A stretch of 64,000 bases of DNA, taken from the NCBI GenBank assembly GCA_014905635.1, contig JABVCE010000030.1, positions 186,001 to 250,000 on the forward strand. Direction: 5' to 3'. The notes under the pieces are model-generated. The model did no database searches, was not told where the DNA came from, and saw only the letters and a list, made by a program, of their open reading frames with translations. Both the position numbers and the translations under genes were made by a program. Numbering within the stretch: position 1 is the first letter of the stretch; every line of letters starts with the position of its first letter. The stretch is from Scenedesmus sp. PABB004 (lineage: Eukaryota). Of the stretch, positions 14,086-18,737 are shown in pieces.

Positions 14086-15699
14086 CCTCTGCCCCACGCG
14101 CGCACCGGTTGGGCAGGACCATGCCCGGGTGGTTCCTGAACTTCTTGATGAAGCTAAAGATGTAGTCCCACCGCCCGCAGTTGAGCCCCGCGCTGTGCGG
14201 GCGCAGCTCGTAGATGATCTCGTCCATCTCAAACGCGGCGGTGATCGTCTCGATCAGCACCGTCGCGCGGATCGTGCCGCGCGGCACGCACAGCATGTCT
14301 GCGGGCGCGGACGCCGGCGGCGGCGCGCGGCGGCGTGGGCGCGCGCGGGCGCCGCGTCCGGCCGCGCGACCGGTCACGCGGCCGGCCGCCGCCGCAGACA
14401 CCAACGCGCTGCCGCCGCGCCCGTGGCCCCAGCAGGCGCCGCCGCGCCCGGCCCCGCGGGCGCCGCACCCTGCGCGAGGTTGAACGCGTCGTTCCAGAGC
14501 CGCGCCTCGAGGTGGCTCTCCATCTTGGGCAGGTAGAAGTAGGGCCCGCCGCCCGCCGTGGCGCTGAGGGCGGCGTTGTGGAAGAAATAGAGCCCAAAGT
14601 CAAAGAGGCTCGCCGACACGGGCGCCCCGTCGACGAGGAAGTGGGCCTCGTCGAGGTGCCACCCGCGCGGGCGCACGAGCAGCGTCGCGAGCTCGGCCGC
14701 CGGGCGCAGCCTGCCGCGGCGCGGCGGCGGGGTGGCGCGGGCGGGTGGGGCCGGGCCGCGGCGGCGGCGGCGCGGCGGCGGCGCTGCGAGCGCAGGCGGC
14801 GACGGCGCGCGCGTGCGCACCGGTACGTCTTGCCGCCGGGCGCGGTGAACGCGATGGTGCGGCGGTTGGCGTCGCGCAGGTTGACCTGGCCGTCGATGTT
14901 GTTGGCCCAGGTGGGCGCGTTGGAGTCTGCGGCGCGGGCGGGCCGGCGGCGCTCGTCGGCCGGCTGGCCGGCGCCGGCCAGCCGGCCTGGCCGCCGCGCC
15001 GCGCGGCGGCGGCCGCCGCCGCGGCCGGCGCGGCGCCCGCGCTGCCGCCCGCGCGGTCTCCTGAGCTGGTGGGGCCGCCCCGGCGCCCCCTGGCGCCTCT
15101 GCGCGGCCGAGTGAGTTGCGGTTGCTGGCGTCAGCCAGTCCGCGCACCCTCAAAGTCGGCCATGAACTGCGTGGCGCCGCTGTTGAGCGCGTTGATCACC
15201 ATCTTGCGGTCCACCGGGCCCGTGATCTCCACGCGGCGGTCCACCAGGCCGGGCGCGGGCGGCGCGCCCTGCCAGGTCGGGTCGGCGCGGATGCCGGCCG
15301 TCTCGGGCAGGAAGTCTGCGCGCAGCGCGCGTGGCGGGGCGTGACCTACCGCCCGCGCCGTGCGGCGCGGTCTGGCGACGCCCCCGCGCGCCGCGCCGCG
15401 CTGGCAGCAGCATGCCGCGCGTCGCGGGCGCCTGGCGCGCGTGCGCGCCCCGGTCCCGCCGGCGCGCCCGCCCGGGCGGCGTCCGACACGCATGCCTGTC
15501 CCCCCGCCTCACCGGGCAGCACGCCGGCGTCGATTTCATACTGCCGGGTCACCCGGCGGTGCAGCAGCTCCTTGCGGCGCGCGTCGAAGCAGCGGTGCAG
15601 CGTCGCGACGAAGCGCTGCGCCTCGACGCTGAGGATGTCGGCCTGCTCCGGCGCGACGTGGCCCAGCACCTGCACGCCGGGCGCGGTCTGCACGGGCAT
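12543..15699 (-). CDS. MS: Malate synthase (glyoxylate cycle), multi-exon
   Basis: [114 protein letters not shown]. Ends PRM*. Confidence 0.97.
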
Positions 15700-15822
15700 G
15701 GCGTTCACGGCGCGGGAACGGGCGGGCGGGGCGCGTGACGGAGCGAGGCCGCGATCGGGGCGAGCGCGGAGGAGTGGCGGCGGCCGCGCGCGCGCGCCGG
15801 CTGAGTTTTTTTTTTTAACGCG

Positions 15823-15838
15823 CGTCACCCGTCGTCGC
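15823..15838. repeat. Direct repeat copy 1 (candidate target-site duplication)
   Basis: Exact match to 16819-16834. Confidence 0.8.
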
Positions 15839-16015
15839 TCCCCGGCGTGCTCCCCGGCCTCGCTACCGCCGTGGGAGCGCCGGCCGGTGGTCTCAACACC
15901 GGCGGCTGGGGGGATGGGGGCTGCCGGGGCGCCCCGAGGGGCGTCCCGGCGCCGCGGGCGCGCGGCGCGCGTGCGCGGCGCTGCCACCGCCGCGCGCGCG
16001 CGCCGCCGCCGCCAA

Positions 16016-16262
16016 CACCGACCATGGGCATCCTCTGATCGCCGGCCGCCTGAAACAGGCCACTGCGGCGCGAGGCATAACGGTTTGGGACCGGCCCGCA
16101 GGTCGGTGCCCCCCGCGAGGGGGTCCCCCCCCCCCCCCCCGGAACGGGTGACCATGCGAGAAGCACACGCGCACACGCCTGACCTAACCTGGCAACACAC
16201 AACAGCAAGAGGCCTTTTAACGTCCTGCCCAGGACGGAGAGCGCAGCGCAGGCACACGCCGC
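16016..16262 (-). ncRNA. Candidate Fanzor omega-RNA scaffold region (hairpin-rich)
   Basis: Immediately 3' of the Fanzor stop, with several stems visible. RNA identity is inference. Confidence 0.3.
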
Positions 16263-16818
16263 TCACGCCGGGGGGTCCACCGCGGCGGCGGCCGCCTGCC
16301 GGAACGCGCCGGCGAGGCGCGCGCCGCCCGCCGTGCCGCGGCCGCCGCGCAGCAACTCGTGCAGCGTGAGCGCGCAGATGTTGCGCGCCGCGTTGTCGTC
16401 GCGCGGCGCGACGACCGTGCACCCGGGGCACTGCATCAGACCATAGATTCCCCGCAGCTTTTCCATGCGCGCCCCGCAAACAGAGCAGGTGATGCTGGTC
16501 CGGTGCTCGTCCATGAGCACCGCGGCGACGCGCCGGCGCGCGTAGTACGTGCGCAGCAGCGCCAGCAGCGCCTGCCGCGGCGGCCCCGGCCCGCCGCGGC
16601 GGCCCCGGCCCCGAGATGCAGCCGCCCATGCCCAGGCTGGCGTCCCCGATGCCCAGCACCACCGCGGGCAGGTCGGCGGGCAGGCGCACGTGCGGCCGGA
16701 CGCGCCCGCGCACAAAGACCCGGCCGTATGCAGTCAAATGAATCGCCGCATGCAGCGCGCGCTGCTTCAGCCCGTGCTTCCGCAGCCGCCACGCACACTC
16801 GTCGTTGTAACGCGCACC
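16263..16818 (-). pseudogene. Fanzor/TnpB-family RNA-guided nuclease, C-terminal fragment, frameshifted
   Basis: Bridge-helix-like WRLRKHGLKQRALH, VVLGIGDASLG, MDEHRTSITCSVCG (RuvC-II Glu plus CxxC), QCPGC, RDDNAARNI (RuvC-III). No N-terminal half, no introns. Confidence 0.88.
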
Positions 16819-16834
16819 CGTCACCCGTCGTCGC
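16819..16834. repeat. Direct repeat copy 2 (candidate target-site duplication)
   Basis: Exact match to 15823-15838. Confidence 0.8.
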
Positions 16835-16893
16835 ACGTCACTGCGCCCGGAATTGAGGCCTCTCTCCCTGCCTGCCGCCAGCGTCTTGTGGCG

Positions 16894-18261
16894 CTATAGC
16901 CGCGGCGCCGGAGTGCCGCCGGCGAGGCGCGCCGCCGCCGCGCGGAGGGGCGCGTGCGCGGCGTCGTACGTTGCCGCGCCGACGGCGGCGCGCACGCGCG
17001 CCATCCAGGCGCGGACCTCCGGGTGCGGCGCCAGCAGCTGCTCCATCTGGGGCGCCGACGGCTCGGCGGCGAGCAGCCTGCGGCGCGGCGGCGGGGCGCG
17101 TGACGCGGGCGGGGCGCGTGACGCGCGCGCGCGAGACACGTGCGCCCTCGCCCCGCGAGGCTTTCCCGCGGGGCGCGGGACCAATGGGCGCGAGCCTGTG
17201 GTGTAACTGTCTTTGTCTTTGTCTTTTTCCCGCGCCCGCCCGGCGCGGCCCGCGCCTCGCCTGAGCTGCTCGAGCTCGCAGACGCAGAGCAGGTCGGGCG
17301 CGGAGGCGTGCTGCCCGGTCATGAACGGCCGGCCGGCGAGCCAGTAGGCCTCGAGGTCCTTCAGCGCCGCCGCGAGCACCGCCGCGCCGTGCGCCGCGAC
17401 CTCCTTGGACGCGGGGGCCTTGAACACGCGCGGGCCTGCCGCGCCGCGCGCACGGGCGCGCGTGCGCGCGTGAGCGCCGCGCGCGTCGCGCACACTCGCG
17501 GCGGGCGGGCGGCGGCGCCCCACCAAGCACGGTGTGCCCGACGAGGCGAGTGCCGCCCAGGCGCACGGTGAGGTGCTGCCAGTGCAGCGCAGATTCAAAC
17601 GCCGCCGCCGCCGCCGCGTCGGCGCCGGCGCAGCCGCGCGCCGGGTGCCACGCCGCCGGCAGGCCGTACTTGTCTGCGGTGCCCCGGCCCCGGCGGCGGC
17701 GGCCGCTCGCGCCCGGGCGCACCGCCCGCTTCGCGCGCGCCCCCTCGCGCCCGGGGGCCCCGCGCGCCGCCGGCGCACCGACCTGCGAGGTAGGTCAGGA
17801 TCGCCGCGCTCTCGGGCAGGCGCAGCGCGCCGTCGACCAGGAACGGCACCTGCGGGCCGAGAGGGAGGGGAGGGGCGTGAGCACGGCGCGGCGGTCGCGC
17901 GTGAGCACACGCCGCGGCCGCGGGGCGGCGGCGGCGGCGTGCCGGCATCGCTTCGCACCTTGGCGAGCGGGTTGAGCGCGGTGAAGGCGGGCAGGCGCTG
18001 CTCGCCGCGGTCGAGGCGCAGCAGGCGGACCTCCACCGGCAGCGCGTGCACCCTGCAGGGCGGCCGCGCGCGCGGCGGGCGCCAGGGCTCGCGCGCGGCG
18101 GCGCGCGGGAGTTTGGGCGGCGCCGCGCGCCAGACCCCGCGGCCGGCGCACTTGACCAGGATCCAGGCCGCGCGGCTGGGCTGGCTGATGAGGTCGACGT
18201 AGAGCACCGGCGCGGCGCCCCCGGGCGGCGCCGGCGCGGCCATCGGCGCCGGCGCGGCCAT
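16894..18261 (-). CDS. GSTT: Glutathione S-transferase, theta class
   Basis: LYVDLISQPSRA (theta catalytic Ser), NPLAKVPFLVDG, LPESAAILTYLA, SAPDLLCVCELEQL, HPEVRAWMARV. Ends PRL*. Confidence 0.9.
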   Translation of the reverse strand: MAAPAPMAAPAPPGGAAPVLYVDLISQPSRAAWILVKCAGRGVWRAAPPKLPRAAAREPWRPPRARPPCRVHALPVEVRLLRLDRGEQRLPAFTALNPLAKVRSDAGTPPPPPRGRGVCSRATAAPCSRPSPPSRPAGAVPGRRRAAPARERGDPDLPRRSVRRRRAGPPGARGRARSGRCARARAAAAAGAGAPQTSTACRRRGTRRAAAPAPTRRRRRRLNLRCTGSTSPCAWAALASSGTPCLVGRRRPPAASVRDARGAHARTRARARGAAGPRVFKAPASKEVAAHGAAVLAAALKDLEAYWLAGRPFMTGQHASAPDLLCVCELEQLRRGAGRAGRAREKDKDKDSYTTGSRPLVPRPAGKPRGARAHVSRARASRAPPASRAPPPRRRLLAAEPSAPQMEQLLAPHPEVRAWMARVRAAVGAATYDAAHAPLRAAAARLAGGTPAPRL

Positions 18262-18737
18262 CGCAGCAGCGAGAGAGAGCGGCGGCGGCCGGGCGGCAGG
18301 GGCGCGCGCTGCGGCCGCCGGCTGCGCAGCCGCCGGGCGCTGCTGCCCAGCCGGCGGGTGCTGCCGACGGCGCCCGGGTGCTGGCGGCGCGGCGGGCGCA
18401 GGCGGCGCGGCGGCGCGCGAGCAGTGGCGGCGCGCGAGCAGCGGCGGCGCGGCGGCGGGCGCGGTGGTGCGGCGGGGGGGGGGGGGTCGTGTGCAGCTCC
18501 CTGGAGCAGCCACGGGACGAGCAGCGCGACCCGTCATTGACGAAAGTGACCAGACCGCGATCGCGACCGCTGGGCGCCCGTCGTGTCCCGCCTGCCTCGC
18601 GTGCGGGCAATCCGCGATCTCCCGCGTCCTCCTGGCCCGCGTCCGCGCGCGTTCGGCCAGCATCTGCGCCCGCGCGCCACGCTGTCCTGGCCTGCGCGCG
18701 CGCCCGTCGCGCATTCGGGCGGTCCCGGGCCCGCAGC

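Follow-up and report, generated by a model that had tools for sequence, protein, structure and literature searches.

What is the short piece of coding sequence that lies, broken into two reading frames, between two genes of the green alga Scenedesmus sp. PABB004, how did it come there, and can it still do anything? A first-pass annotation, made from the sequence alone, described it as an inactive remnant of a Fanzor. Within the RNA-guided nucleases of the TnpB/Cas12 group, Fanzors form the branch that occurs in eukaryotes and giant viruses. We have followed up this description in the 64-kb stretch of DNA which contains the fragment (here called the window), and all coordinates and frames are given on the numbering of that window. 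The reading that best explains the locus is that the fragment is a Fanzor pseudogene, composed of the last quarter to third of the gene together with about 420 bp of downstream non-coding DNA. We put the probability of this reading, taken as a whole, at roughly 0.88.

Layout of the locus

Both peptide strings quoted in the first-pass annotation are present on the minus strand, in two frames. The downstream frame (frame A) keeps the native C-terminus. The upstream frame (frame B) overlaps it at the break and, in the overlap, both frames encode G-P-G-P-P-R. The features of the locus, in order of coordinate, are:

15514-15700, minus strand: first coding exon of malate synthase, downstream flank (Pfam MS_N, 52.1 bits)
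15813-15838, no strand: copy 1 of the direct repeat (26 nt), bordering the apparent insert on its low-coordinate side (local alignment)
15839-16262, minus strand: 3' non-coding part of the apparently inserted unit, downstream of the stop (metagenome contig cover)
16263-16265, minus strand: TGA stop of frame A
16266-16592, minus strand: frame A, C-terminal part (about 109 amino acids) of a Fanzor/TnpB nuclease (Pfam, custom HMM, PDB alignment, AF2 and Foldseek)
16398-16400, minus strand: RuvC-III Asp codon, frame A
16485-16487, 16476-16478, 16428-16430 and 16419-16421, minus strand: zinc-ribbon Cys codons, frame A
16506-16508, minus strand: relocated (alternative) catalytic Glu codon, frame A
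16574-16611, no strand: perfect 19-bp tandem duplication (16574-16592 identical to 16593-16611), shifting the frame by one base (copies compared directly)
16612-16800, minus strand: frame B, upstream part of the fragment (ORF listing; copy boundary in runs X1, X2 and X3)
16645-16647, minus strand: Gly codon of the V-V-L-G-I-G-D-A-S strand, frame B
16805-16834, no strand: copy 2 of the direct repeat (30 nt), bordering the apparent insert on its high-coordinate side (local alignment)
16894-18533, minus strand: 3' part of the upstream host gene, tentatively a glutathione S-transferase (ORF listing; GST_N below threshold)

The fragment had been drawn as far as 16818. It is real, but its similarity to other copies ends at 16800, and the positions from 16805 onwards belong to the flanking direct repeat. 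In the ORF listing, the minus-strand ORF that holds frame B is open up to 16893. This open frame is 515 codons long (15346-16893, minus strand) and passes from the fragment through the non-coding part of the insert and into malate synthase exon 1, all in the same frame. It is most likely due to chance, stops being rare at about 80% GC, although it could misguide gene predictors into proposing a fusion.

Identification of frame A as a Fanzor C-terminus

Frame A is the C-terminal part of a TnpB/Fanzor nuclease, far beyond chance. The Pfam family PF07282 (Cas12f1-like TNB) matches it at 41.7 bits (cut-off 26.3, E 1.3e-10) and, together with the four cysteines, marks the zinc-ribbon (TNB) domain. 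The TnpB models of NCBIfam give weak, partial matches of 23-25 bits, for which the cut-offs are 100-450 bits. A search of a representative library (1.84 billion sequences) with frame A returned 53 proteins at E <= 0.001, none of them below 1e-10. The best, P0001 (632 amino acids), is 48% identical over 63 residues, which is also the highest identity to any full-length relative.

All 53 relatives were scanned by motif pattern and 17 of them were inspected at full length. To obtain a more specific profile, 13 Fanzor-like relatives were picked by eye on the basis of a Gly-bearing strand followed, after a further 30-40 residues or so, by V-D-E-aromatic-x-T-S and then by the ribbon, and a custom HMM was built from these with no window sequence included. 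Among the remaining relatives are TnpBs of the prokaryotic type, whose RuvC-II motif is acidic (P0018 and P0033 are examples). The custom HMM scores 86 bits (E 1e-25) against the frame-A ORF. This was the sole match above the HMMER inclusion threshold among the 724 six-frame ORFs of the window (the runner-up had E 0.047), so that no further Fanzor piece was detected there.

The arrangement of the catalytic and metal-binding residues is that of a Fanzor. In an alignment of 16 sequences, ten columns are invariant in all 16 (E29, T32, C39, C55, C58, R64, D65, N67, A68 and N71), and C36, C39, C55 and C58, as well as the R-D-x-N-A-x-x-N motif, fall in conserved columns. The closest solved relative by sequence is the mimivirus TnpB-like protein L79, a Fanzor2 (PDB 9b0l; E 3e-4). 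In the alignment with 9b0l_P, the window Glu pairs with E467 of ApmFNuc, and the RuvC-III Asp of the R-D-x-N-A-A-x-N-I motif, which occupies one of the invariant columns, is likewise paired. According to the passages of Jiang et al. (2023; PMC10530073) that treat this point, the canonical RuvC-II Glu is replaced in Fanzors by Gly or Pro, and an alternative conserved Glu lies some 45 residues further on; E467 is the required alternative glutamate of ApmFNuc and its replacement (E467A) abolishes cleavage. In the nearest relatives of the fragment, the strand equivalent to RuvC-II does indeed bear a Gly and not a Glu.

The structural comparison agrees. An AF2 model of frame A has a mean pLDDT of 77, and its top PDB match in Foldseek is the Fanzor1 PpFz of Parasitella parasitica (9cf0; probability 0.98, E 0.046), spanning the whole 109-residue model in 111 alignment columns. 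Ranks 1-15 are occupied by Fanzor, Cas12f, TranC or TnpB structures. The Foldseek E-values are weak throughout, 0.046 being the best, as is to be expected because the model has only 109 residues. In the ESM Atlas, the clusters that look like P0001 carry PF07282 and come mostly from Nucleocytoviricota, with some from Chlorophyta.

Profile and structure searches had been proposed in the first-pass annotation as the check on its reading, and they returned TnpB/Fanzor RuvC-zinc-ribbon matches (Pfam, custom HMM, PDB and Foldseek). Its description of a Fanzor-type TnpB homologue is borne out by the Pfam and custom HMM scores, the E467 alignment and the fold match. The E467 alignment and the conserved columns also uphold the detail of this description, a Glu moved to DExxTS ahead of a CxxC..CxxC ribbon and followed by RDxNAAxNI.

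Other copies of the fragment

The only close database relative is P0054, the hypothetical protein HT031_003426 of Scenedesmus sp. PABB004, which is 98% identical to frame A over all 109 residues. No other annotated protein resembling frame A was found among those of 59-191 or of 192-2000 amino acids. P0054 starts with M-G-G-C-I-S-G-P-G-P-P-R-Q and continues straight into the frame-A sequence. Its residues 1-115 are Fanzor remnant and are joined via a predicted splice to an Ssb-like OB-fold (residues 150-239, 125 bits). Since this OB-fold has no counterpart in the window, a second locus must exist. In both loci the fragment sits just upstream of a host gene and in the same orientation. The annotated model of P0054 has its start within the fragment, and a longer Fanzor frame is not seen in it. 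It is probably a chimera, caused by the location of the element just upstream of the OB-fold gene. This should serve as a warning to annotators, as P0054 is the single database protein built on the element.

The fragment is also found in metagenome contigs. In those of runs X1, X2 and X3, which come from two studies, the match to the window ends at precisely 16800, where unrelated sequence takes over. The T>C differences that the metagenome contigs show at 16436 and 16466 match the two Met-to-Val differences of P0054; these contigs may therefore represent the P0054-type locus. JGI metagenome contigs contained no close relative but two distant loci, one (L001) with a prokaryote-type TnpB and the other (L002) with a split Fanzor-like gene. 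IMG/VR likewise gave no close viral relative and a single distant locus, at 39% identity. The suggestion that the alga harbours an uncharacterised Fanzor family does not gain from these searches: one other copy was found, with a gene model that starts inside the fragment, and the contigs match only as far as 16800.

Origin of the frame break

The duplication of 19 bp is by itself sufficient to explain the shift between frames A and B, since 19 leaves a remainder of one when divided by three. It is missing from P0054 and also from the freshwater-metagenome contigs of runs X1 and X3, in which 19 bases are left out at 16574. Because these undisrupted natural copies read straight through, the joined two-frame reading is the ancestral one and not a construct; the joining of the two frames in the first-pass annotation was thus justified. 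The duplication is taken from the assembled sequence and could in principle be an assembly error, as none of the sequencing runs contains the organism of the window itself (best share of words 0.23). A late tandem duplication by slippage would have broken the frame in the window copy only.

The upstream frame and the RuvC-II position

Frame B is a more difficult case. Taken alone, it gives no match to Pfam and no significant score with the custom HMM; BLASTP against P0001 is not significant (E 0.41), and hhalign against the 16-sequence alignment gives a probability of 0.2%. No protein of 176-2000 amino acids sharing frame B was found. The best pairwise hint is a weak BLASTP match to the same strand of P0004 (E 0.018). 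If an X is placed at the break so as to join the two frames, HMMER sets V-V-L-G-I-G-D-A-S on the Gly-bearing strand of the family, though this does not raise the score. By manual count, 40 residues separate the Gly from the Glu.

How far the remnant reaches past the break is thus judged from this colinearity, from the weak match to P0004 and from the fact that the stretch is common to the other copies up to 16800, because frame B has no independent support. For the same reasons, only part of the earlier claim of a Gly at the canonical RuvC-II position can be retained: the residue is colinear with the Gly strand of the relatives and suitably spaced, but frame B is not significant in its own right. 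We regard this placing of the Gly as plausible on sequence grounds.

Boundaries of the apparent insert and host flanks

Two direct repeats enclose the fragment, copy 2 being equal to copy 1 except for one mismatch and a 4-nt insertion. Between them lie 966 bp (15839-16804) with a GC content of 76%; the window ranges from 75 to 84% in 2-kb bins and the alga has about 80%. An exact 15-mer core of the repeat occurs at only two sites in the 64-kb window, one in repeat copy 1 and the other at 16820-16834. With up to two mismatches there are three matches in the window, compared with 0.5 expected by chance. The 966 bp look like an insert with a duplicated target site. The point at which the metagenome contigs diverge (16800) is 4 nt before repeat copy 2. 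The contigs of runs X1 and X2 have the same 30 loose letters after 16800, and these continue frame B without a stop (a hand translation, and weak evidence).

Both flanks are intron-split eukaryotic genes. Directly downstream of the insert, and in the same orientation as the fragment, is the gene for malate synthase, of which a TIM-barrel exon further downstream scores 105 bits. The stop codon of the gene upstream (16894-16896) is separated from repeat copy 2 by about 60 nt, and this gene is probably a glutathione S-transferase. This attribution is tentative (GST_N on one exon, 17.6 bits against a cut-off of 20.9). A short tandem repeat (17090-17133; unit type G-G-C-G-G-G-G-C-G-C-G-T-G-A-C-G-C) lies within this upstream gene, apparently in an intron, and a related stretch is present at 15725-15768.

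The fragment is an incomplete member of its family. It keeps approximately the last 180 residues, where the closest full-length relatives have 632 and 735, and lacks the RuvC-I Asp, WED and REC. The flanking repeat and the stop of the next gene (16894) adjoin the fragment, leaving no space in which these could lie. That RuvC-I and REC/WED are missing had been noted from the first, and it fits with the end of the copy similarity at 16800, this lack of room and the search of the window for further pieces.

The course of events that we propose is the following. The 3' end of a Fanzor gene would have entered the short spacer that separates the two host genes, forming an insert of 966 bp, and the 26/30-nt direct repeat at its edges would, by its look, be the duplicated target site. 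Decay would have proceeded by 5' truncation and then by the 19-bp slippage duplication. If this order is correct, the locus offers a clean case of the decay of a Fanzor gene.

The 3' non-coding part and the mode of arrival

The 3' non-coding part of the unit is shared with other copies: over 15845-16300 the metagenome contigs are 90-100% identical to the window, and they show indels at 16109-16125. A run of 16 C residues lies at 16125-16140 (plus strand) inside the insert, and among the metagenome copies small indels are found just ahead of it. Contigs from an RNA-library run (X8) cover 15977-16222, which is no proof of transcription. ORFs in this part contain no Pfam families, and an Rfam scan of 15000-17500 gave nothing. 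The 3' part folds better than shuffled sequences (z -3.4), as does the other strand (z -4.0), and an excess present on both strands gives no indication of an RNA on one or the other. Neither the Rfam scan nor the folding of the 3' part thus yielded a guide RNA.

Recognisable element ends were not seen either. The score for terminal inverted repeats, 29, is within the range of shuffled sequences (mean 20.4, maximum 33), and inspection showed no ends of the Helitron type. Protein searches and the custom HMM scan of the window found no intact copy and no transposase. A run of 11 T residues (15806-15816) overlaps the first four bases of repeat copy 1. We considered retroposition by target-primed reverse transcription in this connection and rejected it on inspection, because the T11/A11 run is situated beyond the repeat-flanked insert and on the wrong side for a poly-A tail. 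The unit could derive from a longer element elsewhere, of which it would be a truncated copy, or it could be a short repeat unit copied as such.

Decay and activity

The coding part of the window copy differs from the metagenome copies by 11 substitutions, of which seven are non-synonymous and four synonymous. These appear to carry no sign of purifying selection, a statement to be read with the reservation that 11 substitutions are too few for a real test. At eight of the 11 differing sites (16343-16738) the window has A or T where the metagenome copies have G or C. This excess could reflect a deamination-type decay of the window copy, or else GC-biased conversion in the others.

The fragment is frameshifted and 5'-truncated, and the stop of the next gene follows about 60 nt beyond the flanking repeat, all of which agrees with its initial description as inactive. 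We infer that the window copy is unable to act as a nuclease and that it is drifting neutrally. As it stands it has no value as an editing tool, and would be of consequence only if the complete genome contains an intact relative to which it could lead.

Alternative explanations

Several other explanations of the locus have to be considered. The 966-bp unit might be mobile but non-autonomous, an element that descends from a Fanzor transposon, has kept the 3' end of the gene and a guide-RNA region and is either copied, or supplies a guide RNA, with the help in trans of an intact paralogue. The window and the contigs of runs X1-X3 have the same end at 16800 in two loci, P0054 (maybe the same second locus) has a different neighbour gene, a repeat resembling a target duplication surrounds the insert, the 3' non-coding part is retained in the other copies at high identity and folds better than its shuffles and, in the part of PMC10530073 dealing with the guide RNA, this maps near the right end of TnpB/Fanzor elements. 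Against this, just two loci are known, the folding excess is not strand-specific, Rfam matches and terminal inverted repeats are both lacking, and the searches turned up neither an intact Fanzor nor a transposase. In addition, the boundary at 16800 is equally well explained by a longer source copy at the other locus, and the loose letters, translated by hand, extend frame B. We consider such an element unlikely. The same holds for its more far-reaching version, to which we also give little credence, in which the unit of about 1 kb is still mobile as an offshoot of an undescribed scenedesmacean Fanzor lineage and is served in trans by an intact nuclease less than 50% identical to anything in current protein collections. 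An equally small chance attaches to the proposal that the fragment is what remains of the insertion of a giant virus (Nucleocytoviricota) rather than of a cellular transposon. Giant viruses carry Fanzors, as stated in passages of PMC10530073 and PMC12633428, the best solved sequence relative is a mimivirus protein, and the look-alike clusters of P0001 are mostly from Nucleocytoviricota. However, the insert is just 966 bp long with host genes on both sides and a GC content in line with that of the window, the only viral locus retrieved (IMG/VR) is distant, and the custom HMM found no other Fanzor-related ORF in the 64 kb.

It is very improbable that the zinc-ribbon ORF has been domesticated, whether to encode a small protein in its own right or to serve the downstream gene as a 5' exon, by analogy with the P0054 model which starts from M-G-G-C-I-S. 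That model joins the fragment to an Ssb-like OB-fold gene, and the position of the fragment, just upstream of a host gene and in its orientation, is the same in both loci. The fusion nevertheless has the appearance of a gene-prediction artefact, the window copy is frameshifted, most of the substitutions (7/11) are non-synonymous, and no other annotated protein of 59-191 or 192-2000 amino acids is alike. Least probable of all, to the point that we dismiss them, are a bacterial TnpB acquired by contamination or recent horizontal transfer and a chance ORF in GC-rich DNA. The weak NCBIfam TnpB matches and the frequency of long chance ORFs at 80% GC might suggest these, but the NCBIfam scores are far under their cut-offs, the arrangement of the Glu and the closest relatives are of the Fanzor type, the intron-split eukaryotic flanks speak against bacterial contamination, and a profile E-value of 1e-25 excludes chance. 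As far as such tests reach, the PF07282 score, the E467 alignment and the custom HMM together rule out both. The truncated and frameshifted Fanzor pseudogene remains our preferred reading.

Comparison with known systems

The Fanzor1 proteins PpFz (9cf0) and SpuFz of Spizellomyces punctatus (8gkh) present the same order of elements as the fragment: a helix, a Glu before T-S, a CxxC...CxxC ribbon and a helix with R-D-x-N-A-A-x-N. PpFz is the top fold match and also shares a eukaryotic host. Unlike these proteins, the fragment consists of the last 180 residues or so, with a shifted frame and devoid of RuvC-I, WED and REC, and neither transposon ends nor a guide RNA were found for it. With the Fanzor2 L79 (ApmFNuc, 9b0l) the Glu, on the catalytic E467, the ribbon and the RuvC-III motif all align, but the match spans 53 residues only. 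The hints as to clade are in conflict, the best PDB match being a Fanzor2 by sequence and a Fanzor1 by fold. Fanzor2 is tied to IS607-type elements; none was seen at the fragment.

Prokaryotic TnpBs (IS200/IS605, IS607) have the TNB zinc ribbon (PF07282) and the RuvC-III motif in common with the fragment and, as described in the relevant part of PMC10530073, a TnpB2 subset (for example, TvTnpB) has a relocated Glu as in the fragment. The fragment differs from them in its eukaryotic host and flanks and in its closest relatives, which are of the Gly type and of Fanzor length. Nearest of all is P0054, with its 98% identical frame A, which differs from the fragment in its locus, its OB-fold fusion and its freedom from the 19-bp duplication.

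Fanzors in green algae have already been published (PMC12633428), and the passages of PMC10530073 concerned with these organisms include KnFNuc of Klebsormidium nitens and Fanzor1c of Chlamydomonas reinhardtii, the latter on Helitron2. Among the matches listed in a full-text literature search for Fanzor and Scenedesmus, the Fanzor passages of the main text are not on Scenedesmus. With the fragment, the known occurrence of Fanzors, which is patchy, extends to a further lineage of green algae.

A further gene of this kind was encountered in L002, a metagenome contig of 4.5 kb. Between positions 893 and 1742 this contains a Fanzor-like gene split over several frames, with a RuvC-I-like G-M-D-P-G stretch and a strand with G-K-G followed by V-R-V-V-M. 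It looks like an intron-bearing Fanzor of a eukaryote or a giant virus, distantly akin to the fragment in the window.
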